A stretch of 64,000 nucleotides of DNA from Escherichia phage LF82-9, in the sequence record PV660452. The stretch is one strand, 5' to 3'. How positions within the stretch are numbered: position 1 is the stretch's first letter; every line of letters begins with the position of its first letter. Positions 9,257-42,222 of this stretch are shown here, one piece after another. The notes under the pieces were generated by a model, which was not told the origin of the DNA, made no database searches, and was given only the letters and a program-made list of their open reading frames with translations. The position numbers were made by a program, and so were the translations under genes.

Positions 9257-9367
9257 ATTTACCCTTAATTAATTAACCAAGCGTTGATAAGCAAACCATA
9301 TTGCGAATAAAATTCTGGGCCAAAATGAAAAATCATATCATTTATAGTATCCATAATATAATTCAAT

Positions 9368-9838
9368 TTAATCATGTTTCCACACCCCATCGGTATTTGA
9401 CCAAAGTCGCTGATTATCTGATCCTCGCCACAGCTTTTTGGTCGGAAGATTTTTCTCATACTTCCCATCAATAATAACATCAACATATTTAAGCATTTTT
9501 AGTTGTTTAATATCTTCAAACTTATATCCTGTCCACAACCAAATGCTTTTATTGGGATAAAGATTTTTAATAGTTTGAACCACAGAGTGAATCACATCTC
9601 GGTTATCAGGATAGAGAGGGTCACCTCCGGTTATAGTCAATCCTTCTATATAATCATTATTCAAACATTCAATTAATTGTTCTAGTGTTTCACCAGTGAA
9701 TGGAATACCATTTCTAGCATTCCATGTTGATTTATTATAACACCCTTCGCATTTATGCAAACAACCTGTGACGAAAAGAACGACCCTACAACCAGGGCCA
9801 TTCACAAAATCGCAAGGATAAAATCTATCATAATTCAT
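9368..9838 (-). CDS. nrdG: Anaerobic ribonucleotide reductase activating protein NrdG (radical SAM)
   Basis: 156 aa; cysteine cluster CRVVLFVTGCLHKCEGC typical of glycyl-radical activases; adjacent to nrdD. Confidence 0.88.
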   Translation of the reverse strand: MNYDRFYPCDFVNGPGCRVVLFVTGCLHKCEGCYNKSTWNARNGIPFTGETLEQLIECLNNDYIEGLTITGGDPLYPDNRDVIHSVVQTIKNLYPNKSIWLWTGYKFEDIKQLKMLKYVDVIIDGKYEKNLPTKKLWRGSDNQRLWSNTDGVWKHD

Positions 9839-27317: not shown

Positions 27318-27531
27318 AAGGAATTTCCTCATCGGTGACAAGGTCATATTCGACCAATTGGATAGGCTCGTTAATACCATATCCACGTACAGTGATATCG
27401 GTTGTCGGATATTTTCCAGTAATATCACCCATTCTAAATGCTTCAGTGAATGATTGCTCACCTGAGCAACTAAACCAGGCGGCAAAACATTTTAAAACAT
27501 CTTCAGACCCTTCTATAATCAATTTAGCCAT
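27307..27531 (-). CDS. Hypothetical protein (74 aa)
   Basis: ORF track. Confidence 0.45.
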   Translation of the reverse strand: MAKLIIEGSEDVLKCFAAWFSCSGEQSFTEAFRMGDITGKYPTTDITVRGYGINEPIQLVEYDLVTDEEIPYVD

Positions 27532-27893
27532 TATAGACTCTCAGTAAAGGTACGAGCGATAACGTCGCGCTGCTGTTCCGGAGTCAGAGAGTTAAAGCGA
27601 ACTGCATAACCGGATACACGAATGGTCAGCTGAGGATATTTTTCCGGATGCTTAACTGCATCTTCCAGAGTTTCACGACGCAGAACGTTAACGTTCAGGT
27701 GTTGACCACCTTCAATTTTAACTTTAGGTTGATGTTCAATTTCAATTTCACGGGCATGTAAACCGTAGAAAATTTCCGGGTCTACAATAGCGTCTTCTTT
27801 AAAAGTCTTAGAGACGATAATCCGGGCTTGAGTACCATCTTCAAAATAAATAGTGCCTTTATGTACACCTTCAAGAATTTGATATGCTTTCAT
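27531..27893 (-). CDS. Autonomous glycyl-radical cofactor (GrcA/YfiD-like; T4 Y06I-type)
   Basis: C-terminal ~65 aa ...[60 protein letters not shown] carry the RVSGY glycyl-radical motif and match E. coli YfiD/PflB C-termini from memory; N-terminal half unrelated. Confidence 0.8.
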
Positions 27894-28858: not shown

Positions 28859-29161
28859 TTATTTACCTTTAATTACTTTAGCTGCTTCGATAGCCGCTTG
28901 CTGAAGGTCATCCATAGACATACCGAATTTAGAAGCAAAGTTATCAATTTTCTTTTCGACAGCATTCAAAGGCTTGGCCTGTTTACCTTCATTAGCGCCA
29001 GGAAGAGCGAGAATACGCTCTTTGTCAATATAAAGGCTTACAAGTTTCTTACGGTCTTTATCGGACAAATCATGAAATGAATGGGCCTTTTTATTTATAG
29101 CGGCTTCTAATTTACCTGCACTCACTCGCGCTTCAGTAATAAATTCTTGATATGTTTTCAT
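28859..29161 (-). CDS. Internal-protein-like (IPII/IPIII-type) with N-terminal capsid-targeting leader, 100 aa
   Basis: N-terminus MKTYQEFITEARVSAGKLEAA resembles the T4 internal-protein leader cleaved by the prohead protease. Confidence 0.65.
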   Translation of the reverse strand: MKTYQEFITEARVSAGKLEAAINKKAHSFHDLSDKDRKKLVSLYIDKERILALPGANEGKQAKPLNAVEKKIDNFASKFGMSMDDLQQAAIEAAKVIKGK

Positions 29162-29192
29162 TTTTTGTTTCCTTGTTTGTTTTGATAGAGTA

Positions 29193-29222
29193 ATTATACC
29201 ATATTAATACTTAAGCGTAAAC
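29193..29222 (-). promoter_or_regulatory. Early promoter (GTTTAC-N18-TATAAT)
   Basis: Minus strand GTTTACGCTTAAGTATTAATATGGTATAATTACTCTATCAAAAC. Confidence 0.6.
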
Positions 29223-29225
29223 AAT

Positions 29226-29486
29226 TTAAGCTTTACCGCCAGAAATAATTCCGAAGTTGTTAAAATCGTATCCAATATCGTCAACATCTACTTTAGGATT
29301 TACTACAACATAAGCAATTTCACTACGTTTTGCATAGGTGTTGATTTCTTTACCATCGCCACCTAAGAAAGAATACCCATTACGTTTTAATGAGCCAAAG
29401 TCTTCGGCATCACCAATGAAAGCTTTAACTTTAAATTTAGGACCTTTGGCATCTGCTTCAATGATAAATTCTTGATACATTTTCAT
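29226..29486 (-). CDS. Internal-protein-like with capsid-targeting leader (MKMYQEFIIEA), 86 aa
   Basis: Leader similarity to T4 internal proteins; body unrelated. Confidence 0.55.
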   Translation of the reverse strand: MKMYQEFIIEADAKGPKFKVKAFIGDAEDFGSLKRNGYSFLGGDGKEINTYAKRSEIAYVVVNPKVDVDDIGYDFNNFGIISGGKA

Positions 29487-29492
29487 TTTTCC

Positions 29493-29906
29493 TTAGTAAA
29501 TTGATTTACCATAGTATTTGTACCAAGTAGGACGTTGAGCAATTTTTTCATCTAAGCGTGCTTGACTTATCGCAACGGACGCTTCGGACGGGACATAATT
29601 ATTACGAAATTCGGCAGGGATGTCGGAAATATCCTGGACTGTCGTGTCCTTGATTTTGAAACCACGTTTCAAGCATTCAGCGATTAGCTCGATTTGTCGT
29701 AAACGTAAAAATTCAAGTTTGTCGTAAAAGAATGTTACGTGACCTGTGCCTAAGATAAATGTTGGAGAGATTTTAAAATCCTTTACACGTTTACCGTTTT
29801 GGACATGTTTACGGACTGCACTAAATACGCGTGGTAATTCACGATACTCAGCCATAAGATGTTGATCGGTCAGTTCAGAAACAAGTGTTAAATTGATACG
29901 AGTCAT
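29493..29906 (-). CDS. denV: Endonuclease V (pyrimidine-dimer DNA glycosylase) DenV
   Basis: [28 protein letters not shown]...[22 protein letters not shown] matches T4 DenV; 137 aa from ATG at 29906. Confidence 0.92.
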
Positions 29907-29933
29907 AATTTCCTCCAAGTAGTTGATGAATGT

Positions 29934-29963
29934 ATAGTATCAAAACCCTTGGAGGAAGTAAAC
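29934..29963 (-). promoter_or_regulatory. Early promoter (GTTTAC-N18-TACTAT) with CCTCCAAG/CTTGGAGG stem
   Basis: Inverted repeat pairs the denV RBS region with the promoter spacer. Confidence 0.6.
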
Positions 29964-29964
29964 A

Positions 29965-30246
29965 CTATTTTTCTGAAGCGCCTGAAATATATTTTTCAAG
30001 ACGTTGTTTCATCAGCGAGCCGTTCTTAGCGATTTCTTCCGGTTTATCGCACATACGTAACAAGGCTTCAAGCTTAGCGATATCGCTGGTACGTTCAAAT
30101 TTGCGAGTATCTATCTTACTAGCAAGTTCAGAAATACGTGCTAATAGACTTTCGGCTTCAACCAAAGCTGCACCTAGCTTAGTTGCAAATGTGTCAGTAG
30201 CTTCGTTAAGAATAGATTCTGATAAAAATTCACTATATGTTTTCAT
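29965..30246 (-). CDS. Internal-protein-like with capsid-targeting leader ([11 protein letters not shown]), 93 aa
   Basis: ATG at 30246 overlaps the lysozyme stop (ATGA); leader similarity. Confidence 0.55.
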
Positions 30247-30731
30247 ATATACGCTTTCCAAGTTCCTGTTTTAAATGTTGAGATTACGCGTTTCGCGCGA
30301 TTAGGTGTCTGACGATACCATTTAGATTGGGCGAGATTTACTGCCGCTTCATCCCAACGTTTCTGTTGAAGCATACGAAGAGAATTAGTAAAACCAGCAA
30401 CGCCTGCTACACCCATTTGGAAGACCATATTGACCAATGCACACCGACGAACTGCATCTAAAGAATCATATACCGGTTTAAGTTTAGCATTACCCAAGAT
30501 TCCGCGAACGGCTTTATCGACGTCTTCATTAAATAGCTTTTCAGCCTCATCAAGGGTAATTGTACCGTTGCATTTACGACCGATCATTCTGTCAAGTTCA
30601 GCTTTAGCTACGGCTAAAGACGGGTTCTTTGTTACCAAGTGGCCTATGCCAATCGTCCAAAAGCCTTCAGTGTCTTTGTATAAAGTCAGTCTAAGACCTT
30701 CGTCATTACGAAGCATTTCAAATATATTCAT
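30243..30731 (-). CDS. e: Lysozyme (endolysin) e
   Basis: [32 protein letters not shown]...[22 protein letters not shown] matches T4 lysozyme; SD GGGAGG. Confidence 0.93.
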
Positions 30732-30763
30732 AATACCTCCCACGTTTATAGGAGGTATTTATT
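30732..30763 (-). promoter_or_regulatory. RBS-sequestering hairpin of the lysozyme gene with an embedded late-promoter-like TATAAACG
   Basis: 9-bp inverted repeat AATACCTCC/GGAGGTATT covers the e Shine-Dalgarno; TATAAACG lies in the loop. Confidence 0.55.
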
Positions 30764-30765
30764 AC

Positions 30766-31224
30766 TTATAGGATGGTAGTGAGCACCTTATATAATGATT
30801 TGCCCATTACATATTCCCATTGAGAAGGTTTAATTAAAGCGAATGCATCAAATTCAGGAATCTGTCGTCCGTCCTGGAATGTATGATATGAATTACAAAC
30901 ACTGTTTCTGAATTGCTCGTGCTCTACAGGGATGGTATATAGGAACAGATGAATATTCTTATTGTCTGAGTAATGATGTTCACCTAGGTCTTTCAGGAAG
31001 GCAGGGTCATATTGTGTAAACCCAGTTTCTTCTTCGCATTCACGAATAGCGGCTTCGATAGGAGATTCGCCAGGTTCGACACGGCCTTTAGGAATATCCC
31101 ACCGATGAGCTAATGCACCTTTAGGACGAGAACCAGTTACACGACCCATGAATAATTCTTTATCTTTTGTCATGAAGATAATACCGGCTGATAGTTCTTT
31201 CACTTTATTTTTCTTACTCATCAT
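30766..31224 (-). CDS. Nudix hydrolase (T4 e.1/NudE-like)
   Basis: Nudix box GRVEPGESPIEAAIRECEEETG. Confidence 0.8.
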   Translation of the reverse strand: MMSKKNKVKELSAGIIFMTKDKELFMGRVTGSRPKGALAHRWDIPKGRVEPGESPIEAAIRECEEETGFTQYDPAFLKDLGEHHYSDNKNIHLFLYTIPVEHEQFRNSVCNSYHTFQDGRQIPEFDAFALIKPSQWEYVMGKSLYKVLTTIL

Positions 31225-31465
31225 CTCGGTCCCATGATTTGGCCATTAATTCGGACATAAATTCTTCAATACGCGTTTCTTTAGATGGACTTTCACTATT
31301 AGAGACCGCAAGTTTGTAATCTGCAATAGGACTGAACAAATCAAGGTCCGTATTAAGGTCGTCTTTGATTTTTTCTTCTGACACATCTTTATCATATGTG
31401 TACAGATAACTATCACATGATTCTGATTTAATGTAAATTGCTATACTCATCTCAAATTCCTGCAT
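31214..31465 (-). CDS. Hypothetical acidic protein (83 aa or shorter)
   Basis: ORF track; internal ATG MSIAIY has the better RBS. Confidence 0.45.
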   Translation of the reverse strand: MQEFEMSIAIYIKSESCDSYLYTYDKDVSEEKIKDDLNTDLDLFSPIADYKLAVSNSESPSKETRIEEFMSELMAKSWDRDDE

Positions 31466-31830
31466 TCGGTAATAAAACGTTCAACTTCGTTATTCTTGGC
31501 CTTTATCTTGTCTTTACGTTCCTGTAAACTACTTTTAACAAGATTAATAATGATGCCTATAGTACCTCCACCAATTATACCACCAATTATACTTACGATA
31601 GTAGATGCCAATAAGATAGCGATAATATCTGGTATGGCAAAGGCACTTACTTTAGTACTAAAAAACCATACCGACGGTACAAATATAATCCATCCTGTTA
31701 TCCATTGGCACTTATTGAAAAACTTTTCAAGATCAGCTTGAGTTGTTCGTATTACTTCATCGATAGGTTGATATCCATTAATGTATCTGTTCACGATAAT
31801 ACCTTCGTTGCCATCGTCTATATTAACCAA
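31447..31830 (-). CDS. Hypothetical membrane protein (127 aa) ending in the FITECR junction motif
   Basis: Two hydrophobic helices; C-terminus ...ERFITECRNLR. Confidence 0.5.
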   Translation of the reverse strand: MVNIDDGNEGIIVNRYINGYQPIDEVIRTTQADLEKFFNKCQWITGWIIFVPSVWFFSTKVSAFAIPDIIAILLASTIVSIIGGIIGGGTIGIIINLVKSSLQERKDKIKAKNNEVERFITECRNLR

Positions 31831-31846
31831 TATGTTTTGTTAATCA

Positions 31847-32533
31847 TTACCAGCCTTCCATAGGGAATTCCAGATAAACTTGGGCATTGACGCGAATTTC
31901 ATTGGTAATCTTTTTAACTCGGTCTGTATTACGAGATACACGTCCGAACCAACGCCATCCATTACTAATTGCACGAGAACCAGTGTGCCATGTTTGCCAA
32001 TCAAACTGAAGAAGAGTACGGTCTGGAGCTTCCCATTTCTCTAGTTCACCTTTTTCAATTTTTTCGAGGACTTCTTTGTGCCATTGGCGATAGATAAGTT
32101 CGCCATCAGGAATCTGACTGAACTCTGCAGTTCCTGTTGCAAAATGAGTAGGACACACGTCAGCGTTAACAAGACCAAGAATATGTTCAGACAAATAGCG
32201 AGGATTGTCATAGTCAGGTTGTCCTGCAGTAATAAAATGTTGACCAACCGGAATATCCGGGCGTGGTACATCATCATGGTGATAACCTGGGATAGCAGGG
32301 TACCAACCAGGCATCAGCATGTGGACTCGTGAATCAAATACAACCTGGTCGGTGTTCCAATCATCCGGCAAGTTCATGATGAAGCTGCGAGTAATAGGAC
32401 CGCCGTTATTATAAGCAAATTCTAAACTACAGTTGAAGAACATAGGCTCGTTCTTGATTTTATCATTAGAAATACCGCCGGCAAAACCACCTACTGCACG
32501 AGCTTGACTATTAAACACTTTAGAACTATTCAT
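31847..32533 (-). CDS. Hypothetical protein (228 aa), H/W-rich
   Basis: ORF track; SD GAGGAAAATAAT upstream. Confidence 0.55.
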   Translation of the reverse strand: MNSSKVFNSQARAVGGFAGGISNDKIKNEPMFFNCSLEFAYNNGGPITRSFIMNLPDDWNTDQVVFDSRVHMLMPGWYPAIPGYHHDDVPRPDIPVGQHFITAGQPDYDNPRYLSEHILGLVNADVCPTHFATGTAEFSQIPDGELIYRQWHKEVLEKIEKGELEKWEAPDRTLLQFDWQTWHTGSRAISNGWRWFGRVSRNTDRVKKITNEIRVNAQVYLEFPMEGW

Positions 32534-32534
32534 A

Positions 32535-32840
32535 TTATTTTCCTCGACATTCTTTAATGAAATTTTCTAGATTGGTAGATTCAATAGCTTTTTTACGAGC
32601 TTCTGCATGTTCTTCTTCAGACAATTTACATTTATAATTAACCCAGACGTTATGGTCAAAACTAGTCGTGGCATATAATAACAAAGCCCCGACGAATAAT
32701 AAAAATGGCGATAAGAATACAAAACCAGGAACACCATCCATATCGTAAGCCTTTTGTAATACTGCAACAGAAAGAGCTGCGTAAAAAAGTGATACAAATA
32801 TTGTTAAAAGACCAATTCGGTTGGTTTCTGTTAATTTCAT
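32535..32840 (-). CDS. Hypothetical membrane protein (101 aa) ending in ENFIKECRGK
   Basis: Two hydrophobic helices; shared C-terminal motif. Confidence 0.5.
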   Translation of the reverse strand: MKLTETNRIGLLTIFVSLFYAALSVAVLQKAYDMDGVPGFVFLSPFLLFVGALLLYATTSFDHNVWVNYKCKLSEEEHAEARKKAIESTNLENFIKECRGK

Positions 32841-32868
32841 AATATTCTCCTCATGTTTTAATAGGACT

Positions 32869-32898
32869 ACTATAACATAGTCCTATAATTGTGTAAAC
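32869..32898 (-). promoter_or_regulatory. Early-promoter cassette (GTTTAC; ATAGGACTA/TAGTCCTAT stem)
   Basis: Minus strand GTTTACACAATTATAGGACTATGTTATAGTAGTCCTATT. Confidence 0.5.
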
Positions 32899-32910
32899 AG
32901 TTTTGTGAAA

Positions 32911-33867
32911 TTATTTGAAAGGTTTTACCATATGAAAGTTTTGTTTGAAACGCTTGACGTAATCGTCGTGTCCTAAGCTTTGGTACATACTTACTACTTT
33001 GCTATAATTTTCCCAAGCGAACTCACGGAACCATCCTGATGTGATTGATGTACAGACCTTTTCAAGGGCCATCATAAAACTATCACGTGGATGGATTTCA
33101 AAGTTATTAGGAATCTGAGAACGTTCTAACGCTAGTACACATGATTCTTCGTATACGCCGGCCAATTTGACCATTTCTGGTAATGATTCGAACTTCTCGC
33201 GTGAGGTCATGACTTCAGAACCATCTTTCATATAAAATGTATACGCTGGACGGTCCGTTAGTGCAATGGCTTCGTGAATAGTATCATGGTCATACGTATA
33301 GATGTCATCTTTAAAGAATGCGCTTTTAGAAGTGTCAAGAACTGGGTGAGCATAGTTCAAGGTTTCTTTCTGGCGTTTCAGCATAATTTCATTAAGTTCA
33401 TCGTTCAGTGTAACACCTTTACCACGAAGATACTGAATATGGTTCATAGTCTTTAAAAAGAATGGATTATTTTTCTTGAAACGATGGGACATCTTAATTG
33501 CAAGGCACATCTCAGGAGTTGCCCAGTAAAACCCGTTCAAACGGTCTTTAGTCAAATTTTTCTTGGCGTATTTTAAAAGGTCATAAGAAGACGTGAAATC
33601 TTCAGGAGTGAGTTCACCGACTAATTCACGGACATTAGTGATTGCCGGAACAATATATGCTTCAAAATGAGTTTCGCGCCCATTATGGAAGCATTTGAAA
33701 ACTTGGACATCAGGGTTATCTTGGTGAACATATACACCCATCATTTGATTTTTGAATGCATTCCAAGAACCTTGGTCCGCAATAAAGTCCCAATCACTAT
33801 TTTTAATAGCGCTAGAATCAATAAGACCGTGATAGTGAAGTGCACGAGAACCAATAACTAACATCAT
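32911..33867 (-). CDS. Hypothetical protein (318 aa) with nucleotidyltransferase-like N-terminal motif
   Basis: N-terminus MMLVIGSRALHYHGLIDSSAIKNSDWDFIAD (GS ... SDWDF); spacing longer than canonical, assignment tentative. Confidence 0.5.
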   Translation of the reverse strand: MMLVIGSRALHYHGLIDSSAIKNSDWDFIADQGSWNAFKNQMMGVYVHQDNPDVQVFKCFHNGRETHFEAYIVPAITNVRELVGELTPEDFTSSYDLLKYAKKNLTKDRLNGFYWATPEMCLAIKMSHRFKKNNPFFLKTMNHIQYLRGKGVTLNDELNEIMLKRQKETLNYAHPVLDTSKSAFFKDDIYTYDHDTIHEAIALTDRPAYTFYMKDGSEVMTSREKFESLPEMVKLAGVYEESCVLALERSQIPNNFEIHPRDSFMMALEKVCTSITSGWFREFAWENYSKVVSMYQSLGHDDYVKRFKQNFHMVKPFK

Positions 33868-33895
33868 AATATTTTCCTCGGATTAATTCATTAAC

Positions 33896-34147
33896 TTAAA
33901 TTTCACGACATGCGATATTATATTCATCCCAGAGGTCATCATGTGAAGCCTCTACCAATGGAACGATTGTACCGTTTATGTCTTCATTATAAGGGCAAAT
34001 TGTACAGTGCGCATCTTCGAATCGGATGCCTTTGTGTTCAGATTTTTTATAACGCATATCGAATATCTTTGCAAACTTTTCACGAGTAATGGTTTTACCA
34101 ACCACTTTGGTTCCGATACTTTCGTAATAAATCATTGTGGACTCCAT
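33896..34147 (-). CDS. Hypothetical protein (83 aa)
   Basis: ORF track. Confidence 0.45.
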   Translation of the reverse strand: MESTMIYYESIGTKVVGKTITREKFAKIFDMRYKKSEHKGIRFEDAHCTICPYNEDINGTIVPLVEASHDDLWDEYNIACREI

Positions 34148-34163
34148 TTGTTTTGATAGGACT

Positions 34164-34193
34164 ACTATAACATAGCCCTATCTTGTTGTAAAC
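34164..34193 (-). promoter_or_regulatory. Early-promoter cassette (GTTTAC; ATAGGACTA / TAGCCCTAT stem)
   Basis: Near-duplicate of the cassette at 32869-32898. Confidence 0.5.
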
Positions 34194-34197
34194 TGTT

Positions 34198-34395
34198 TTA
34201 GCAAGAATAACTAGATGATACCCAGCCTTGAACAGTGATACTATTGTGGGATAATGAGATCGCGTCCTGGAGATTCAGACCTGCGTTATCTTCAATCCAT
34301 AATGTAACTTCTTCGCGTTCTTCTGTTGCAATTTGGAACAGGTTTTCCAGAGCAGCTACTGCCGTACGTACAGCACAATCTAATTCACGAGACAT
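34198..34395 (-). CDS. Hypothetical protein (65 aa)
   Basis: ORF track. Confidence 0.4.
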   Translation of the reverse strand: MSRELDCAVRTAVAALENLFQIATEEREEVTLWIEDNAGLNLQDAISLSHNSITVQGWVSSSYSC

Positions 34396-34404
34396 ATGAT
34401 TTCC

Positions 34405-34677
34405 TTAGCATTCCATAGAAGATGCAACCCAACCACCTGATTCGAGGCTGGTGTAATATGAGTGTTGGTTGACAGTGGCCCAATTCGGATTGCCTTGTTC
34501 GGTATAATGCTCAAGTTCTTTTTTCAAGAATCCAGGAGAATAATACGTTCCACCCATACCATAAGCTGGATACAAGTCGAATGTTGTGTTTTGTTTATCA
34601 GCAATTTCTTTGGCAGCCTCAATAGCTGCATAGATTTTTGCTACAGCTTCAGCCAGTTCGGTTTGTTCTTTAGACAT
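34405..34677 (-). CDS. Hypothetical protein (90 aa); paralog of the next gene (shared C-terminus GGWVASSMEC)
   Basis: Both start MSK..., share YYSPG/YYPKG and end WVASS-x-x-C. Confidence 0.5.
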   Translation of the reverse strand: MSKEQTELAEAVAKIYAAIEAAKEIADKQNTTFDLYPAYGMGGTYYSPGFLKKELEHYTEQGNPNWATVNQHSYYTSLESGGWVASSMEC

Positions 34678-34686
34678 AATGATTCC

Positions 34687-34992
34687 TTAGCACAACGCAG
34701 AAGACGAAACCCAAGCACCTTCAGTAATAACGTAACCATTACCTTCACGCTTAACATCGCCACCATTATTTTCAATTTCATCTTTCATCCACTGGGATAC
34801 GATTTCACCCTTAGGATAATAAGTACGACCGCTACCATAATCACCTACAGAAAACGATACAGCGTATTGGTCTGCAATCTTTGTAGCTTCTTCTTCGATA
34901 CGTTCAGCTTGATTCAGAAGTTTATAAATTGCATCTGAAGCGGATTTGGCATCATTAAACTCTGGTACTTTAATTTCAATAATCTTACTCAT
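34687..34992 (-). CDS. Hypothetical protein (101 aa); paralog of the previous gene (C-terminus GAWVASSALC)
   Basis: Shared N- and C-terminal motifs with 34405..34677. Confidence 0.5.
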   Translation of the reverse strand: MSKIIEIKVPEFNDAKSASDAIYKLLNQAERIEEEATKIADQYAVSFSVGDYGSGRTYYPKGEIVSQWMKDEIENNGGDVKREGNGYVITEGAWVSSSALC

Positions 34993-35348
34993 TTTCTACA
35001 TTCCTTAATAAAGTTTTCTATTGTTTCATTTTCACGTCTAGCTAGGAGTTCATTATAACTAATCATTTGAGAAGCGTAAACCTTTTTATTTTTCTTGTTA
35101 TGGTTTATAAAATCGTAGTAAAAATAGACTACAGTACAAAATGATGCGATGGATGCAAAGGCTTGAGTATATCGTAAGTCCTGCCATTGGTCTGTGAATC
35201 CACCGGTGTTCCCTATAAATCCTAACACAACTCCGTCAATAAGAAATCCAACTAATCCAAAGGCAAATCCCATGCCAATACTCATAATAAAAATTAGAAT
35301 GTTCTCACCGAGAGAAGGCCGTACGGTTAAGAGTTGAGGCTTTTGCAT
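34989..35348 (-). CDS. Hypothetical membrane protein (119 aa) ending in ENFIKECRK
   Basis: Two hydrophobic helices; shared C-terminal motif. Confidence 0.5.
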   Translation of the reverse strand: MQKPQLLTVRPSLGENILIFIMSIGMGFAFGLVGFLIDGVVLGFIGNTGGFTDQWQDLRYTQAFASIASFCTVVYFYYDFINHNKKNKKVYASQMISYNELLARRENETIENFIKECRK

Positions 35349-35722
35349 CTTATTTCCTTAACGAATTCCATAGCTTCTTCATATTCATACTTTTTAACAG
35401 CTTCAACATACTGAGCTTGGGCTTTTGCGCACTGAACTTTCCACTCGCGAACTCGAGCTCTGTGATGACGGCCTTGGTGCCAATATCCTGCCCAATTAAT
35501 AGGCATTAATAAAAACGGTACAATAAGTGGTGCGACGAACATTAATGAAAACGCTGCATCAGACGTTATAACTTTATTGGAATCTAAAATAGCTCCTATA
35601 ATCATAAAGATTAAAAATGCTAAAGCTAAAATAGGGCCAAATAGTACTTCGTTTGGGATTAATTTACGTTTGTATTCGTATGCCCAGGGCTTAATTGGCA
35701 TGTACAGGGTTGGCTTTGACAT
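35327..35722 (-). CDS. Hypothetical membrane protein (131 aa) ending in MEFVKEIRC...
   Basis: ORF track 35327..35752 trimmed to ATG at 35722; hydrophobic helices. Confidence 0.45.
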   Translation of the reverse strand: MSKPTLYMPIKPWAYEYKRKLIPNEVLFGPILALAFLIFMIIGAILDSNKVITSDAAFSLMFVAPLIVPFLLMPINWAGYWHQGRHHRARVREWKVQCAKAQAQYVEAVKKYEYEEAMEFVKEIRCKSLNS

Positions 35723-36308
35723 ATTCTCTACATTCCATAATAAATTGCTCAAGGATTAAATTGTTAGTGAAATTAGGACTAACAACCATAGTTTCATAAA
35801 GCGCATCAATAGCACTTAAAGCATCAACTCTTTTAAGCAAAGGCTTGCCTTCATACATAGTTTCAGAATCGATGATTAACGTAAAGTAATATTTTTTATT
35901 ATCGACTAGAACTTCTGTATCGATATAAAACATATTAGACCTCAGAAGCTTATCTCTAAAACCATAATAATCTTCTGAACGTTCGCTGATATATTCCCAT
36001 TCAGTGTTTAAACAACAAACAGACCATGTAGGAGCAACGAAATCAGTGAATCTAATATCATGGTCTGCAACTAGTTTAGCAATAGCTCCGATATCATGAA
36101 TCATAATACCTGGGGCTAATAAAGATTTTCGGCGATTTGCGTATTCAGTTGTCTCATAAGAAGCTGACCAGTACCATTTACGTCCAGTTGCAACATATCG
36201 TAATGAATCAACTAAAGACGTAGGTGGATTTACCTTATCTCGGAACTCTTCGAACATTGAGTCAATATCATTATTTTGGTTTCGCATGTTAACTCCTTTA
36301 TTATCCAA
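35691..36308 (-). CDS. Hypothetical protein (205 aa) ending in EQFIMECREY...
   Basis: ORF track. Confidence 0.55.
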   Translation of the reverse strand: MDNKGVNMRNQNNDIDSMFEEFRDKVNPPTSLVDSLRYVATGRKWYWSASYETTEYANRRKSLLAPGIMIHDIGAIAKLVADHDIRFTDFVAPTWSVCCLNTEWEYISERSEDYYGFRDKLLRSNMFYIDTEVLVDNKKYYFTLIIDSETMYEGKPLLKRVDALSAIDALYETMVVSPNFTNNLILEQFIMECREYVKANPVHAN

Positions 36309-36336
36309 AAGGAGGACCGGAGTCCTCCGTATTATT

Positions 36337-36930
36337 TTATTTCAAAGAGTTAATATATTCTTGTACATCAGCAGAAGTGGTTTCGACACCGGCTGGAGTA
36401 CCATTGAACGTTTCAACACGAGTCAGAGTGTCTTCGATATCAACCTTAGTCAGTGCAGCGATTTCAATTACATCATCGGCCGTAGAGATACCAAGGGCAT
36501 TGGCTGCTCGAGTTTCACGAATGTATTCGAGTTTGATTGCCAGGTTCTGACGAGCATCGTCAAGTTCAACCACCTTACGAGCAATTTCAATTCGCATAGC
36601 GGCATACCCGTCAGCTTTTGTATTAAGTTGTTCGGCAGTTCGACGATACAGAAGACCAAGCTTAGCATGCATGGTAACATCTTGTCCTTCAGCCAGGAGC
36701 TTACGAATTTCACGTTCCTTAGAAGCGGCTTGCTTGTTCTTTTCATTAACAAGTTCGCGAATACGTTTTTCTTCATTAATAGATTTAACAGAAGCCGTTT
36801 TTAGTTCTTTGATCTGGGTAATCAACTTATCTGCAGCTGCGTTATACTGTTCTTCGACAGTCAGATTTTTAGCCATAGCAGTACCCAGTTTAGTGCGGAT
36901 AAATTCAACAAGTTTCTTCAGTGTGTTCAT
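36337..36930 (-). CDS. PspA/IM30-like all-helical coiled-coil protein (197 aa); assignment tentative
   Basis: Length and continuous heptad-rich composition resemble the PspA/Vipp1 family; ATG at 36930 with SD AAAGGTAA. Confidence 0.4.
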
Positions 36931-36971
36931 ATTATTACCTTTCAATTGGTGGTTTATTATCCAATGAGAGC

Positions 36972-37000
36972 ATTATACTCTGCTCTCAAGAGTTTGTAAA
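36972..37000 (-). promoter_or_regulatory. Early promoter (TTTACA-N17-TATAAT inside GAGAGCA/TGCTCTC stem); near-identical to 6869-6905
   Basis: Minus strand TTTACAAACTCTTGAGAGCAGAGTATAATGCTCTC. Confidence 0.55.
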
Positions 37001-37228
37001 TTATTTTTTAATCAAATTGACATAAAACTTGGCGTCTTCGGGGTGCATGCCTTCGCAGTATTCTTCAACCATGAAATTCTTAACAGCTTCATAAGGACCA
37101 CTCAGATTAAGCTCAGTTGTCCAAAACTTGGAATCTTGGACTGAATCGATACGAACTTCAGGATGACGATTGCGAATAACTTCTTCGGTGTATTCATAAT
37201 CAACGACATCAATACTAACTTTAGCCAT
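37001..37228 (-). CDS. Hypothetical protein (75 aa)
   Basis: ORF track. Confidence 0.45.
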   Translation of the reverse strand: MAKVSIDVVDYEYTEEVIRNRHPEVRIDSVQDSKFWTTELNLSGPYEAVKNFMVEEYCEGMHPEDAKFYVNLIKK

Positions 37229-37258
37229 TTTGTTTCTCCTCTTGATTTGATGTGATTA

Positions 37259-37287
37259 CTATAACATAAACGTACTTAGATGTAAAT
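37259..37287 (-). promoter_or_regulatory. Early promoter (TTTACA-N17-TATAGT)
   Basis: Minus strand TTTACATCTAAGTACGTTTATGTTATAGT. Confidence 0.5.
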
Positions 37288-37441
37288 TATTTCAACGTCA
37301 CCTTTAGCGGCTTTATAACCTTCAGCCCAAGATACAACAGAGTTTTTATCTGAGGATTCAAATTCAGGCATTGGACTTTCACCAATATTCACACAGTATG
37401 TTTCTTCATTTTCATCGAACCAAATAATTAAAGTAGTCATT
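37277..37441 (-). CDS. Hypothetical small protein (54 aa); below ORF-track cutoff
   Basis: Manual translation MTTLIIWFDENEETYCVNIGESPMPEFESSDKNSVVSW... Confidence 0.35.
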
Positions 37442-37470
37442 TTGTTTACTCCTTTGTAGTTGATAAGTCT

Positions 37471-37499
37471 ATAGTATCACCATCCTTGGTGCTTGTACA
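37471..37499 (-). promoter_or_regulatory. Early promoter (TGTACA-N17-TACTAT)
   Basis: Minus strand TGTACAAGCACCAAGGATGGTGATACTATAGACTTATC. Confidence 0.45.
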
Positions 37500-37502
37500 C
37501 AA

Positions 37503-37766
37503 TTATTTCATATTATTGAAATATTCTTCTGCGATTTCGTCGTTATCATGGTAAACTTTAGAAGACAGTTTAACATAACCTTCTGCCGTGAACATGTTAA
37601 TCACAACCTTTACAGTATACCACTGACCGTCTTCATTACCCATTACTGCGTAAGTTTCAAACATCGGATGATCAGGACCAATAACTTTAATATCATTCAC
37701 TGTACGACCGAAATCTTCTGAAACACATTTCATAAAGAAGTTGAACAGTTCGCCGTAATTATCCAT
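37503..37766 (-). CDS. Hypothetical protein (87 aa)
   Basis: ATG at 37766 with SD GGAG. Confidence 0.45.
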   Translation of the reverse strand: MDNYGELFNFFMKCVSEDFGRTVNDIKVIGPDHPMFETYAVMGNEDGQWYTVKVVINMFTAEGYVKLSSKVYHDNDEIAEEYFNNMK

Positions 37767-37809
37767 TTCATTCTCCAAATTGTTTTCTGTATCAGTAGTT
37801 GATAGTTGT

Positions 37810-37839
37810 ATAGTACCATGGAAGAACAGGGATGTAAAC
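37810..37839 (-). promoter_or_regulatory. Early promoter (GTTTAC-N18-TACTAT)
   Basis: Minus strand GTTTACATCCCTGTTCTTCCATGGTACTATACAACTATC. Confidence 0.5.
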
Positions 37840-37975
37840 AGTTTTGTGAAAAAATTTTTTAAAAAGTTTTAGGGAATTCTAGGGTCAGGAGGGACAATTA
37901 AAAGGTAGGATAATATATTATAAAGGGTATAAACTAAATGATGCCCAGAGAGGCCCGGAAAGGCCTAGATACCAA

Positions 37976-38000
37976 AAAGCCCCAACCTTTCGGCTGGGGC
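37976..38000 (-). terminator. Intrinsic terminator (GCCCC/GGGGC family) after the internal-protein gene
   Basis: AAAAGCCCCAACCTTTCGGCTGGGGC; U-run on the minus-strand RNA. Confidence 0.7.
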
Positions 38001-38008
38001 TAAGAATG

Positions 38009-38482
38009 TTATATGATTTGTTTAGCAGACCAAATGCGGTCTTTAATAATTTTTTGGATGTCTTCAACATATTCAAGAGAGTGAACATGTGGGTTATCTT
38101 TGAAACTATAAGCACGAGCTAGCTTTTGGCCTTCAGTTTTGATTATCAAAAGTTCTTTAAGAATTGCTTCATACCTAGAGATAATTCCTTTAGCAATATT
38201 TTTTTCTTGTGCTGCTTTAGGGTCAGCCTTAGGAGCAGGTTTACCTGAAGCCTTTGCAAAAGCAGCTCCAGTAGCAACTAAACTTTTCCAAGCCATACTA
38301 ACTGCATTCCCTGTAAATCCTTCGGCTTTCATATCACGAGCAAATTGGAATCGTGATTCATCGGAAGCATCTTTATAGGAATATTTACCCGCGGCAATGG
38401 CAGCTTTTGCAACAGCTTGAATTTCAGTGCTAGATGCTTCATTTAACACCGCTTCATTTAAAAATTGAGCATATGATTTCAT
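38009..38482 (-). CDS. Internal-protein-like with capsid-targeting leader (MKSYAQFLNEA), 157 aa; late-promoter driven
   Basis: Leader similarity; A/K-rich body; TATAAATA upstream. Confidence 0.6.
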   Translation of the reverse strand: MKSYAQFLNEAVLNEASSTEIQAVAKAAIAAGKYSYKDASDESRFQFARDMKAEGFTGNAVSMAWKSLVATGAAFAKASGKPAPKADPKAAQEKNIAKGIISRYEAILKELLIIKTEGQKLARAYSFKDNPHVHSLEYVEDIQKIIKDRIWSAKQII

Positions 38483-38518
38483 CTTATTTCCTGTTTTAAT
38501 TCGTGGTTTTAATATACT

Positions 38519-38526
38519 TATTTATA
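38519..38526 (-). promoter_or_regulatory. T4-type late promoter TATAAATA
   Basis: Exact consensus on the minus strand ~37 nt upstream of the ATG at 38482. Confidence 0.5.
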
Positions 38527-38529
38527 CTA

Positions 38530-38556
38530 AAAAGCCCCAACCTTTCGGTCGGGGCT
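38530..38556 (-). terminator. Intrinsic terminator (GCCCC/GGGGC family)
   Basis: AAAAAGCCCCAACCTTTCGGTCGGGGC; U-run on the minus-strand RNA. Confidence 0.7.
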
Positions 38557-38560
38557 AAGC

Positions 38561-38760
38561 CTTGCGGCAACCTTGTCGGGGTTCCACCTGCTAAGGCAAG
38601 TGTTTGTACGAAACGCCGGGATTCGAACCCGGTTATTAAGCAGTTGACGCTACTCAATATTTTTAAAAGGCCATATCTCGACCATATCCGAACGTTCCGT
38701 CAAAAACGCTACTCGGCTTACGGCAAAGATATTTCCTCGAATCGATAATTCGGTGCGCCG
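38561..38760 (-). ncRNA. Candidate small stable RNA / tRNA-like remnant (T4 species-1/2 RNA region analogue)
   Basis: No plausible ORF; canonical tRNA T-arm CCGGGTTCGAATCCCGG at 38616-38632 (minus) without a full cloverleaf; ends at a terminator. Confidence 0.3.
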
Positions 38761-38843
38761 TTTCTGCTGTGATGTAAGAGGGCATCAATAAACGCAAAGA
38801 TTATTAACGCAATTCCTTACTCAGGGAACATCAGTCCGACGAC

Positions 38844-39398
38844 TTACCGGTAGCGACCCGGTTTCTCATTTGGTATTTCAAATTGTGTAGATTTAGTATC
38901 TAATTTTTTAACTATGGAACTTATGTCATGAAAGAAAAACCATTCACCATTTATATGGTCCTGATTATAAATGCTGTGCATATATTTTTCAAGTTCTACT
39001 GCATCCTGGGAATATCTAAATGATACTATTTTAAAACTTTTAAACGGTGAAAATGTATTTGCTGTTATAACTCTAACATCAGGTTCTATACTTCTTCCTA
39101 TTTTATAATAATTAGGATTTGTAGTATCTACCATTATGTATACGAAAGCCTGTCGATAGCTTTTTTCTATATCAAATTCATCTTTAAATTTCAAAAGATT
39201 TAGGGCGGCAGTCCTACAAAATACTTTCCATTTTGACAAGCGTTTGGCTTCAGTCATAGAAAAGAATTTTTTCTTATCTGTTATTTTAAGAAAAGCAACA
39301 TTTTCAATTAGTTCTTGTGTTATTTCAAAATTACCATGGTATATTAATCCAGCTTTTATAGCCAAATTAATTTGGTCCCAGTCTACATCACTTCTCAT
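38844..39398 (-). CDS. T5orf172/GIY-YIG-like domain protein (184 aa) adjacent to the tRNA cluster; possible seg-type endonuclease relative
   Basis: Motif FVYIMVDTTNPNYYKIGRS resembles the GIY...YIG/T5orf172 core, but in the middle of the protein. Confidence 0.4.
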   Translation of the reverse strand: MRSDVDWDQINLAIKAGLIYHGNFEITQELIENVAFLKITDKKKFFSMTEAKRLSKWKVFCRTAALNLLKFKDEFDIEKSYRQAFVYIMVDTTNPNYYKIGRSIEPDVRVITANTFSPFKSFKIVSFRYSQDAVELEKYMHSIYNQDHINGEWFFFHDISSIVKKLDTKSTQFEIPNEKPGRYR

Positions 39399-39419
39399 AA
39401 TATTATTCTCTCAATAATT

Positions 39420-39496
39420 TGGTCAGGGTGAAAGGATTCTAACCTTTAACCTGCGGTTTAGAGGACCGCTACTCTATACAATTGAGTTACACCCCG
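39420..39496 (-). tRNA. tRNA-Arg (anticodon UCU)
   Basis: Manual cloverleaf: anticodon stem GCGGT/ACCGC, loop CCUCUAA, T-arm AAAGG-TTAGAAT-CCTTT, encoded CCA. Confidence 0.7.
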
Positions 39497-39622
39497 TAAT
39501 TAGTTCACAGCAATACCTACTCCAACAATCAAGATGTCTTCACACGAAATTAAGAGAAGTGTGATCAGTTCAACCCCTATAATCGCGTCAAGTAGATATT
39601 AATGTGACAGTTGTCACAAGTT

Positions 39623-39697
39623 TGGCGGACATGCATGGATTCGAACCATGGACCAATTGATTAACAGTCAACTGCTCTACCACTGAGCTACACATCC
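39623..39697 (-). tRNA. tRNA-Asn (anticodon GUU)
   Basis: Manual fold: D-arm GCTCAGTGGTAGAGC, anticodon loop CUGUUAA, T-arm CATGG-TTCGAAT-CCATG, encoded CCA. Confidence 0.65.
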
Positions 39698-39701
39698 AAA
39701 T

Positions 39702-39788
39702 TGGTGGGGAGTGGTGGAGTCGAACCACCCGAGTCGCAATGACAATGAATTTACAGTCCACACCGCTACCTCTACGGGATAACTCCCC
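39702..39788 (-). tRNA. tRNA-Tyr (anticodon GUA), long variable arm
   Basis: 87 nt; acceptor GGGGAGT/ACTCCCC, anticodon loop CUGUAAA, T-arm GGTGG-TTCGACT-CCACC. Confidence 0.55.
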
Positions 39789-39794
39789 TTAATT

Positions 39795-39869
39795 TGGTGG
39801 CCCTGGGTGGAATTGAACCACCATCTGGCGATTATGAGTCGCTTGCTTGAACCTTCCAGCTACAGGGCC
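39795..39869 (-). tRNA. tRNA with CAU anticodon (Met or lysidine-modified Ile)
   Basis: Acceptor GGCCCTG/CAGGGCC, anticodon loop CUCAUAA, T-arm GGTGG-TTCAATT-CCACC, CCA encoded. Confidence 0.65.
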
Positions 39870-39870
39870 T

Positions 39871-39946
39871 TGGTGCTGATTAACGGAATCGAACCGCCGA
39901 CCTTCTCATTACAAGTGAGTTGCTCTACCTACTGAGCTAAATCAGC
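39871..39946 (-). tRNA. tRNA-Thr (anticodon UGU)
   Basis: GCTGATTTAGCTCAGTAGGTAGAGC...CUUGUAA...GGCGG-TTCGATT-CCGTT; matches T4 tRNA-Thr architecture. Confidence 0.8.
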
Positions 39947-39951
39947 AAAAC

Positions 39952-40041
39952 TGGCGGAGGCGATAGGATTTGAACCTATGAGTCGCCGGAGCGACTGCCG
40001 GTTTTCAAGACCGGTGCATTAAACCACTCTGCCACGCCTCC
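39952..40041 (-). tRNA. tRNA-Ser (anticodon UGA), long variable arm
   Basis: GGAGGCGTGGCAGAGTGGTTTAATGCACCGGTCTTGAAAACCGG... matches T4 tRNA-Ser. Confidence 0.85.
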
Positions 40042-40043
40042 AG

Positions 40044-40117
40044 TCTCCATACAAGGATTTGAACCTTGGACCTCCTGATCCCAAATCAGGCGCTCTACCA
40101 AACTGAGCTACACGGAG
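40044..40117 (-). tRNA. tRNA-Pro (anticodon UGG); 3-prime CCA not encoded
   Basis: Anticodon stem-loop CCTGA-TTTGGGA-TCAGG; T-arm CAAGG-TTCAAAT-CCTTG. Confidence 0.75.
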
Positions 40118-40127
40118 TAAATTAAAT

Positions 40128-40201
<74 letters not shown>

Positions 40202-40206
40202 AAATT

Positions 40207-40293
40207 TGGTGCGAGAAGTGGGACTCGAACCCACAAGGAAATCATTCCGCAGCATTTTAAGTGCTGTGCCTTTACCAATTTGACCATTCTCGC
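40207..40293 (-). tRNA. tRNA-Leu (anticodon UAA)
   Basis: GCGAGAATGGTCAAATTGGTAAAGGCACAGCACTTAAAATGCTGCGG...GGGTTCGAGTCCCACTTCTCGCACCA matches T4 tRNA-Leu. Confidence 0.88.
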
Positions 40294-40294
40294 G

Positions 40295-40367
40295 CTGGGA
40301 ATAAAGGACTCGAACCTTTGCATCCTGGAATCAAAATCCAGTGCCTTACCAACTTGGCTAATTCCCA
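40295..40367 (-). tRNA. tRNA-Gln (anticodon UUG); CCA not fully encoded
   Basis: TGGGAATTAGCCAAGTTGGTAAGGC...CTGGA-TTTTGAT-TCCAG...GGTTCGAGTCC resembles T4 tRNA-Gln. Confidence 0.8.
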
Positions 40368-40453
40368 ATTATTAACAAAGGCTCTCAAACAAGAACCCTT
40401 GATGATAGAGGGTATTAATCAGTGCGGTATAAGTTAATAATAACAAATAATTC

Positions 40454-40969
40454 TTAAAGCAAATTAAACATCTTAACGGTCGGCAAAACAATTTCTTCTT
40501 CTATATAAGAGTATTTAACACTCTCAACTACACGCAAAAAATCATAATCATAATACTCAGAAGCATTACCTAAAATATTAATAAGTCCTTCAAGCACTTT
40601 ATTACCATTCACAAAGAATAAGTCAAATACACGTTCTTCATCTTCTTCAGATTTATTACCAAGGTCAACTTCTATATCAAAGACCTTTTTAATGAATTCT
40701 GGATAAAGTTGGTCTGAGAACAGTCCTTCAACCAAGTATTCATAGATAAAAAGCGATTGCTCACTGAACGAAGCATTACCACAATAGTGATCAACTTTTG
40801 TGCTAGAATGACGGCTTTTAAACTTCTTTAAAAGATATTGGAATTGTAAGATTTCATGCTCTTCTACACCAAACAATGTTTTGGTTTTATAGTTGTCACC
40901 GTCATTTTCCCATGTAGTTACATCAATCACATAACCCTGCGGAATTGTAGTACCTAAACAAATATTCAT
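40454..40969 (-). CDS. Hypothetical acidic protein (171 aa)
   Basis: ORF track. Confidence 0.5.
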   Translation of the reverse strand: MNICLGTTIPQGYVIDVTTWENDGDNYKTKTLFGVEEHEILQFQYLLKKFKSRHSSTKVDHYCGNASFSEQSLFIYEYLVEGLFSDQLYPEFIKKVFDIEVDLGNKSEEDEERVFDLFFVNGNKVLEGLINILGNASEYYDYDFLRVVESVKYSYIEEEIVLPTVKMFNLL

Positions 40970-41259
40970 TTGCTCACCATATTAATGTAAGTATATTCAA
41001 TACATTCAAGACCCAAAGGATTCTTGAAAATATCATATTCAAGAGGACCTTTTTCCGTTTCAATAAAGAAATCAAAATTTACTGTATTAAATTTACGGTC
41101 TTCCTTCACTAATTTAACTTGAGAAGATGAACGGTCAACATAAACCTTTTCAACTTCAAAACACGTTAAAACGCCATAATCATCAATCAAGGCTTTAGCT
41201 GCTTCTTGATCATATTTATATCCATTTTCAATGGATGATACTTTTGCATAAAGAATCAT
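40966..41259 (-). CDS. Hypothetical protein (97 aa)
   Basis: ORF track; coupled overlap. Confidence 0.45.
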   Translation of the reverse strand: MILYAKVSSIENGYKYDQEAAKALIDDYGVLTCFEVEKVYVDRSSSQVKLVKEDRKFNTVNFDFFIETEKGPLEYDIFKNPLGLECIEYTYINMVSK

Positions 41260-41261
41260 TG

Positions 41262-41672
41262 TCAGCCTCTATCAACGATAGCATGAGTATGGGCATTTAC
41301 GATTTGCCACCAGTCGAAACGATTGGAACCATAATCTGGTTTATTTTCATTTTCTTTAATGATATCACGCAGCTTATCTTCTGTTTCAGCATACGCAATT
41401 AAATCATCATATCCACCGCAAGGATAATAATTATCACCTGCGAATAAAAGAAAATTTACCTTAGATGGATTTACGTAATAATGGTCTTTAGGATATTTAG
41501 TTCCTCTCCAATCAGTTACTTCAACATAACGGTAAGAAAATCCATTTTTACTTTCAATCCAACTCCACGCTTCAAAAGGAGTATTAAAAACTTTATCAGG
41601 TATTAAATTACCTTCAAAATGAGAAGGATTTGCATAATCCCCAGCATAAACATAATATTCGTTAATACTCAT
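41262..41672 (-). CDS. Hypothetical protein (136 aa), Y/W-rich
   Basis: ORF track. Confidence 0.5.
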   Translation of the reverse strand: MSINEYYVYAGDYANPSHFEGNLIPDKVFNTPFEAWSWIESKNGFSYRYVEVTDWRGTKYPKDHYYVNPSKVNFLLFAGDNYYPCGGYDDLIAYAETEDKLRDIIKENENKPDYGSNRFDWWQIVNAHTHAIVDRG

Positions 41673-41858
41673 TTATTCACCTTTAGAAATTTTATCCATA
41701 ACGATAGTGATTAAACCAATTAAAAATGCTACTACAAGTGAAAAAACATTTTCTGCTGTAGTTAATAATCCGCATATAAATCCAACAAACATTGAAAAAC
41801 TAAAAGCAGAAGCAGAAATTGCAATAGCAACATTTCGAATTAATTCACAGCGTTTCAT
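41673..41858 (-). CDS. Hypothetical small membrane protein (61 aa)
   Basis: Two hydrophobic helices. Confidence 0.45.
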   Translation of the reverse strand: MKRCELIRNVAIAISASAFSFSMFVGFICGLLTTAENVFSLVVAFLIGLITIVMDKISKGE

Positions 41859-41886
41859 TTTATTCTCCTCAGTAGTTGATAGGGTA

Positions 41887-41916
41887 ATAGTATCACAACT
41901 AAAACCCTATGTAAAC
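41887..41916 (-). promoter_or_regulatory. Early promoter (GTTTAC-N18-TACTAT) with TAGGGT/ACCCTA stem
   Basis: Minus strand GTTTACATAGGGTTTTAGTTGTGATACTATTACCCTATCAAC. Confidence 0.55.
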
Positions 41917-41934
41917 AACTTTGTGAAAAATTTA

Positions 41935-42222
41935 TTACAAAAGATTTTTAGCAATAATTTTAAGCTGAGCTACTGAAATATGCTTGGCTTTAAACAAAGC
42001 AGTTTCTTCAGCAGGGGAGATAACGATTGTAGCACCATCTTTCTTAGCGGACCATCCATCACCAAGGTAAACAGTACCTTTGACTTCTTCTCCATCAACC
42101 AGGCTAATCATCGGTTTACCTTCACGTCCTTTGTTTGCTTTAATAACTTCGGAAGTAAGGGTCGCTTCGGTCAGAGTAGAAACGTTAGCATCAGGTGATA
42201 TAAATTCTTTATAGGTTTTCAT
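41935..42222 (-). CDS. Internal-protein-like (IPI-position) with capsid-targeting leader (MKTYKEFISP), 95 aa
   Basis: Leader similarity; sits just upstream of 57B as ipI does in T4. Confidence 0.6.
   Translation of the reverse strand: MKTYKEFISPDANVSTLTEATLTSEVIKANKGREGKPMISLVDGEEVKGTVYLGDGWSAKKDGATIVISPAEETALFKAKHISVAQLKIIAKNLL

Follow-up and report, generated by a model that had tools for sequence, protein, structure and literature searches.

Which of the small genes between positions 28,859 and 42,222 of Escherichia phage LF82-9 (sequence record PV660452; the whole 64,000-nucleotide stretch analysed is called the window here) encode internal proteins (Ips) of the T4 type, and does their arrangement add anything to what has been described? 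An earlier note, made from the sequence, had reported five open reading frames (ORFs) that begin with a T4 internal-protein leader; the coordinates and the quoted N-termini were confirmed exactly, and all five lie on the minus strand. The five ORFs are very probably T4-type Ips, i.e. small, non-essential proteins with unrelated cargo behind a common capsid-targeting sequence (CTS). This interpretation is correct but already published, and four of the genes are known members in the usual layout of the RB69 group. The one new element is ORF4, a CTS-bearing gene with a late-promoter candidate at a third, cassette-like locus. The genes, with denV for orientation, are as follows.

28859..29161, minus strand: ORF1, 100 amino acids (aa), Ip2 (IPII) orthologue, 93% identity to T4 IPII over 100 aa
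29226..29486, minus strand: ORF2, 86 aa, RB69ORF125c-type internal head protein, PHROG 2667 "internal head protein" (8.9e-21)
29493-29918: denV, between ORF3 and ORF2
29965..30246, minus strand: ORF3, 93 aa from its ATG, Ip5-related internal head protein, PHROG 3499 "internal head protein" (2.1e-46)
38009..38482, minus strand: ORF4, 157 aa, candidate internal protein between rnaC and e.8, PHROG 2280 (unknown function)
41935..42222, minus strand: ORF5, 95 aa, Ip1 (IPI) orthologue adjoining 57B

Capsid-targeting leaders on five minus-strand genes

The criteria for a CTS and its cleavage were taken from a review of Black's work (PMC9026906). According to this review, the first 10 residues of IPIII are sufficient for packaging and processing, targeting acts mainly via position 4 (aromatic) and position 7 (Phe), processing via positions 8 and 10, and gp21 cleaves after the Glu of an L/I-X-E motif. 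The N-termini read MKTYQEFITEA in ORF1, MKMYQEFIIEA in ORF2, MKSYAQFLNEA in ORF4 and MKTYKEFISPD in ORF5. Tyr4 and Phe7 are present in all five ORFs, and Ile/Leu8 and Glu10 in ORF1–ORF4, so that the T4-type leader claimed in the earlier note takes the form of a strict CTS in four ORFs and of an IPI-type leader in ORF5. A protease cleavage site in the leaders, on which that note had staked its proposal, was found in every case as [L/I]-x-E: ITE10 (ORF1), IIE10 (ORF2), LSE10 and LNE15 (ORF3), LNE10 and LNE15 (ORF4), and LTE19 (ORF5). Translation of the plus strand at the five coordinates is filled with stops and contains no ORFs.

The strict pattern MK.Y..F[IL].E matched four ORFs, compared with 0.00066 expected by chance, calculated over the 455 Met starts in the six frames of the window that are followed by 60 aa or more. 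A six-frame scan of the window with the looser pattern M[KR].[YF]..[FL] returned the five ORFs, vs.6 and nothing else. The vs.6 product (27531-27893, MKAYQIL) lacks F7, [IL]8 and E10, is a GrcA-like protein, and was rejected. Any two of the five ORFs have 4–7 of their first 8 leader residues in common, the ORF4 leader being the most divergent (4–5 of 8 in common with the others). The mature regions are mutually dissimilar, as the earlier note had said: all-against-all BLASTP gave no match among the five below E = 0.09, every E value being above it.

The four genes at the recognised internal-protein loci

Recognised Ip genes lie either beside 57B or in the e/denV block, and ORF1, ORF2, ORF3 and ORF5 fall inside these loci, with ORF4 outside them. 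In the annotation of Shigella phage Shf125875, a Mosigvirus (RB69 group), the same four appear as internal virion or internal head proteins.

The CTS of ORF1, MKTYQEFITE↓A (arrows mark predicted cleavage), is encoded at 29132-29161 and precedes a predicted mature protein of 90 aa, whose sequence is 94.7% identical to that of T4 IPII. ORF1 belongs to PHROG 7857 ("internal virion protein", 4.5e-55) and its Shf125875 counterpart is annotated IpII. Its CTS is nearly identical to that of T4 IPII, but the gene is placed differently: T4 ipII lies between ipIII and denV, whereas ORF1 comes last in the block, after denV and ORF2.

ORF5 matches the Pfam family PF11634 IPI_T4 over the entire profile (1.3e-51; 172.9 bits against a cut-off of 25; residues 20–95, profile positions 1–76 of 76). 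Its leader of 19 residues, MKTYKEFISPDANVSTLTE↓A, is encoded at 42166-42222 and would leave an IPI*-like mature protein of 76 aa. Like T4 IPI, ORF5 is 95 aa long, has the long leader type and neighbours 57B, and its mature domain is 96% identical to IPI*. It differs by three substitutions in the mature domain, by Tyr4 in place of the Phe4 of T4 and at several other leader positions; it has Pro10, and the cleavage junction reads LTE19↓ATLTSEV vs. ITE19↓ATLTSEV in T4 IPI. Matches of ORF1 and ORF5 to the Pfam family DUF7412 were weak and below threshold. Early-type promoters (GTTTAC...TATAAT / TACTAT) precede both genes. An additional Ip7 adjoins Ip1 in Shf125875 and is absent from the window; a tblastn search of the window found no homologues of IPIII, Ip4 or Ip7.

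ORF2 starts 6 nucleotides (nt) past the denV stop codon, and its CTS, MKMYQEFIIE↓A, would release a mature protein of 76 aa. Y4, E6, F7, I8 and E10 are invariant across its homologues. The gene is present in 217 phage records and annotated as an internal head protein in Shf125875 and in Escherichia phage LF82-1. Its AlphaFold2 model had a mean predicted local distance difference test (pLDDT) score of 42.7 and was left out of the fold search.

The ATG of ORF3 overlaps the stop codon of the lysozyme gene e (ATGA). Its first predicted cleavage, after residue 10, falls before a Ser, and the second site, LNE↓A, follows residue 15. ORF3 has 47.6% identity with Ip5 of T2 and RB32 across 84 aa and is annotated as RB69ORF127c-like. 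It shares PHROG 3499, a similar helical cargo and its size with Ip5 of T2, RB32 and RB68, but T2 Ip5 lies at the ipI locus next to 57B behind a long IPI-type leader, MKTFKEFATKTTITE↓S, whereas ORF3 lies at the e–denV locus behind a short leader of the IPII/III type. The Ip5 cargo family is thus found at two loci with different leader types (9189-9443 of the T2 stretch vs. 29965-30246 of the window), and leader type and locus therefore appear exchangeable for one cargo.

Around denV, the earlier note had correctly described two leader-bearing genes, ORF3 and ORF2, on either side. It was also right that the arrangement is unlike that of T4: the window has the order e–ORF3–denV–ORF2–ipII, and T4 the order e–ipIII–ipII–denV. 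The order is ordinary for the RB69 group, however. RefSeq Shf125875 is annotated likewise (e, ip, denV, ip, IpII), and at least 80% of the 2.6-kb denV block is covered in 147 phage records, so that e–ip–denV–ip–ipII is, judged from these genomes, the normal arrangement in Mosigvirus.

In the denV block, sequence identity is 100% with the Escherichia phage LF82-1 series and 99.3% with Shf125875. Over 25 kb, the closest genomes all belong to the RB69 group and none is identical (90–92% coverage, 95–96% identity), Shf125875, ST2 and PhAPEC2 being backbone relatives at 95–96%. The 2-kb segment from ORF4 to the tRNA genes (window 37450-39450), in contrast to this backbone, matches Tequatrovirus teqskov at 99.4% identity, and between the ORF4 allele and that of Shf125875 identity is only ~73–79%. 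The window therefore comes from a mosaic RB69-type phage. The genes for gp21, gp22, gp67 and gp68 lie outside the window; Shf125875, which covers 90% of the 25-kb stretch at 96.3% identity, has annotations for all of them.

ORF4 in a hairpin-bounded module at a third locus

Of the five, ORF4 alone is not recognised as an Ip in the literature and records searched. It is encoded in 511 phage records, and all 40 of those listed label it "hypothetical protein". Its CTS, MKSYAQFLNE↓AVLNE↓A, would give a mature protein of 142–147 aa. In a set of 1.84 billion proteins the family makes up only 13 clusters at 50% identity, and all members with a named source come from T4-like phages. Relatives at 40% identity or less to ORF4 still begin with xx[YF]xxF[LV]xE or have an [LI]xE nearby; since the leader is kept despite this divergence, selection probably acts on the leader itself. 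The AlphaFold2 model of ORF4 is all-helical, and a fold search with it gave no informative match. An identification with Ip4, which is also 157 aa long, was considered and rejected: the T2 IpIV sequence is unrelated, and tblastn with IpIV matches only the leader region of ORF1.

The gene stands in a compact module with these elements.

38519..38526, minus strand: T4 late-promoter consensus TATAAATA, beginning 44 nt upstream of the ORF4 ATG, directly after the terminator hairpin
38524..38559, minus strand: upstream copy of a 36-nt direct repeat, the rnaC 3' terminator hairpin
37969..38004, minus strand: downstream copy of the 36-nt hairpin repeat

The two direct repeats are 92% identical, are spaced 555 nt apart, and bracket ORF4 together with its late promoter. 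In T2 and T4 there is one copy of the hairpin and no ORF, and the flanks align perfectly on both sides. The structure of the module is the same in RB68 and diverged in Shf125875, and Klebsiella phage KP01 has two different hairpins. A hairpin and TATAAATA at −44/−48 also precede the homologues in RB68 and KP01, and the counterpart in Shf125875 is AATAAATA, with one mismatch; the late promoter of ORF4 is thus conserved across three genera. These alignments suggest that the module was gained or lost by recombination between hairpins, which would explain why T4, the reference for annotation, lacks ORF4.

Klebsiella phage ValerieMcCarty04 carries an unannotated, unrelated protein of 194 aa at this third, post-tRNA locus (WKM80661; VMC04_131, 9202-9786 of that stretch), which starts MKFKDFLTE↓E. 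By its sequence, this is a cargo replacement behind a similar leader, as in the classical Ip loci.

Arbiol et al. in 2010 and Comeau et al. in 2014 are said to have described modular cassettes of T4-type phages that pair an early promoter with a stem-loop. The ORF4 module resembles such cassettes: one gene under its own promoter stands between repeated stem-loops, and close relatives differ in having or lacking it. It differs in that its promoter is the late consensus TATAAATA and its repeat is the rnaC terminator; its membership of this class is putative.

Within the records and sequences compared, ORF4 is a credible candidate for an apparently unlabelled Ip at a third locus.

Several other features lie around the module. 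Upstream of ORF4, ~38560-38840 on the minus strand aligns with the 3' part of rnaC (species 1 RNA) of T4 and T2 and has tRNA-like features; a search of Rfam at the gathering threshold returned only tRNAs near it, and these phage small RNAs apparently have no Rfam family. An ORF of 184 aa (38844-39398, minus strand) lies between the rnaC/D-like RNAs and tRNA-Arg, at about the position of the homing endonuclease gene segB in T4, and RB68 has a different ORF, of 116 aa, in this place. Ten tRNA genes follow at 39420-40367.

Two further groups of small genes were noticed elsewhere in the window. Three tandem paralogues of 65, 90 and 101 aa at 34198-34992 (minus strand) all end in W-V-[SA]-S-S-x-x-C (GWVSSSYSC, GGWVASSMEC and GAWVSSSALC) and are homologues of RB69ORF136c–139c. 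In the e.2–e.5 region (31447-36308, minus strand), five neighbouring ORFs have a common C-terminal motif, F-[IV]-x-E-[CI]-R (ERFITECRNLR, ENFIKECRGK, ENFIKECRK, EFVKEIRCKSLNS and EQFIMECREY...); some ORFs of this region are annotated as membrane proteins in relatives.

Packaging, function and alternative readings

The mechanism is established for T4 and is carried over to the window by homology. The CTS of ~10 residues, through its aromatic residue 4 and Phe7, would tether the precursor to the gp22 scaffolding core during prohead assembly. Cleavage by gp21 after the Glu of [L/I]-x-E, at residue 10 in ORF1–ORF4 (with a second site at residue 15 in ORF3 and ORF4) and at residue 19 in ORF5, would free the mature protein inside the head. 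The mature protein would remain with the packaged DNA, be injected along with it, and neutralise a first-response defence in the cell. The diversifying set of injected anti-restriction proteins that the earlier note had proposed for the window was described almost verbatim by Rao and Black in 2010 (PMC3012670), and diverse cargo behind a conserved CTS goes back to Repoila et al. 1994, as that review cites it. At least 10 Ips of T-even phages, recognised by their signal sequence, have been reported (PMC12373910), and the unrelated cargos found here, together with this published work, support the proposal.

The assertion that T4 has three Ips stood, but not that only one of them blocks a type IV restriction enzyme: each of Ip1, Ip2 and Ip3 inhibits its own GmrSD type IV enzyme, without cross-protection, and the genes of the two Ip loci have been proposed to all target GmrSD variants (Silas et al. 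2025, PMC12373910). Because of their orthology to Ip1 and Ip2, ORF5 should inhibit the CT596-type GmrSD and ORF1 the ECOR21/BrxU-type GmrSD. Of the mature regions, which the earlier note had wanted compared with anti-restriction families, that of ORF5 matches IPI_T4, and for those of ORF2, ORF3 and ORF4 searches of Pfam, NCBIfam and PDB (profiles only for ORF2) gave no significant match to known anti-restriction or anti-defence families. The likeliest targets of these three would be other variants of type IV modification-dependent nucleases.

Published virion proteomics of relatives bears on packaging. By comparison of printed sequences, the mature region of ORF1 matches WKM80648, detected by mass spectrometry (MS) in CsCl-purified virions of ValerieMcCarty04, and that of ORF5 matches g146 of Yersinia phage fD1, detected in particles. 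The two annotated Ips of ValerieMcCarty04, WKM80648 (the Ip2 orthologue) and WKM80649 (which resembles T2 IpIV), are abundant in its virions. In fD1, g140, which is 96% identical to ORF4, passed the strict threshold for a "phage particle-associated protein", as did g129 (Ip4) and g146 (Ip1), the two remaining CTS-bearing ORFs of the fD1 region covered. From Ala11, g140 reads AVLNEASSTEIQAVAK, and from Ala16 ASSTEIQAVAK; the public fD1 virion dataset is PXD026812. ORF4-family peptides are absent from the virion MS of ValerieMcCarty03/04, which is uninformative for ORF4, ValerieMcCarty04 having a different gene at that position. ValerieMcCarty04 also has an unannotated CTS-like ORF at the ipI locus (VMC04_161, 15897-16280 of its stretch), which starts MKSYQEFLMETE.

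Several observations weigh against reading all five genes as packaged anti-defence proteins. All of the virion detections come from orthologues in other phages. The fD1 particle list is unspecific, with 113–137 of 277 gene products on it, including DenV, lysozyme, NudE and dNMP kinase, so it discriminates poorly and the detection of the ORF4 orthologue is weak support. The published virion proteomics searched contained no detection of ORF2 or ORF3 orthologues, and neither WKM80661 (third locus) nor WKM80674 (ipI locus) was detected in ValerieMcCarty04 virions. An exact TATAAATA is absent from the 120 nt upstream of ORF1, ORF2, ORF3 and ORF5. Injection and neutralisation of a defence have been demonstrated experimentally for Ip1, Ip2 and Ip3 of T4 alone; ip4–10, screened against eight active GmrSD systems, gave no new reproducible targets (PMC12373910), and an anti-GmrSD function of the other cargos is therefore hypothetical.

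How far do these points favour a different account of the leaders? The similar N-termini could reflect a favoured translation-initiation region (a strong Shine-Dalgarno sequence and AT-rich early codons) or chance, with no role in targeting, and the five genes are indeed alike in the sequence around their ribosome-binding sites (AAGGAAA...ATGAAA) and in their AT-rich leader codons. Such an origin would leave unexplained why conservation falls on the residues defined by mutagenesis, including the protease site, why four strict motifs occur against 0.0007 expected with no other carriers among the 455 Met starts, and why two of the five, ORF1 and ORF5, are direct orthologues of proven Ips; this explanation is extremely improbable, being effectively refuted by the IPI_T4 match, the motif statistics and the identity to IPII. 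A mainly structural or physicochemical role for packaged proteins, serving as counter-ions to the DNA or assisting head assembly and packaging, with anti-restriction activity special to Ip1–3, has more to recommend it. T4 Ips touch the phosphates of the DNA through their lysines, a part in morphogenesis was formerly suggested for IPIII (PMC3012670, PMC9026906), mature ORF1 (+6) and ORF4 (+6/+7) are basic, and ip4–10 lack reproducible anti-GmrSD activity. However, mature ORF2 and ORF3 are near neutral (0 to +1), cargo turnover and patchy distribution among close relatives point to an arms race more than to a conserved structural role, and all three Ips of known function are anti-restriction proteins, which makes a mainly structural role distinctly unlikely.

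The most serious doubt concerns ORF4 itself, which may be a late-expressed, non-packaged accessory protein whose N-terminus resembles a CTS, for example through ancestral recombination with the 5' end of an ip gene, the other four being true Ips. Its position outside the two recognised loci, the lack of Ip annotation in the inspected records, its divergent leader, the failure to detect the third-locus protein in ValerieMcCarty04 virions and the low specificity of the fD1 list all fit this account. It must nevertheless accommodate the presence in ORF4 of all four experimentally defined CTS positions (Y4, F7, L8 and E10), the persistence of the motif in the most diverged relatives, a dedicated late promoter of the kind that suits a virion component, and an fD1 orthologue above the strict particle-associated threshold. 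We consider a non-packaged ORF4 rather unlikely and, on balance, favour ORF4 being a packaged and processed internal protein.

A wider proposal can be made tentatively, at somewhat less than even chances: PHROG 2280 may be a genuine CTS-targeted, injected family at a third Ip hotspot after rnaC, carried in a late-promoter cassette, bounded by hairpins, that Tequatrovirus, Mosigvirus and Jiaodavirus gain, lose and swap among themselves, and may inhibit a defence beyond those countered by Ip1–3, for example one of the five T-even-restricting GmrSD clusters without a known inhibitor. Current work has dealt with two Ip loci and screened ip1–10 for anti-restriction activity, and ORF4 is an obvious extra candidate for such screens. 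Its position suggests that a search for the CTS across whole genomes, instead of one locus at a time, could enlarge the catalogue of injected anti-defence proteins.

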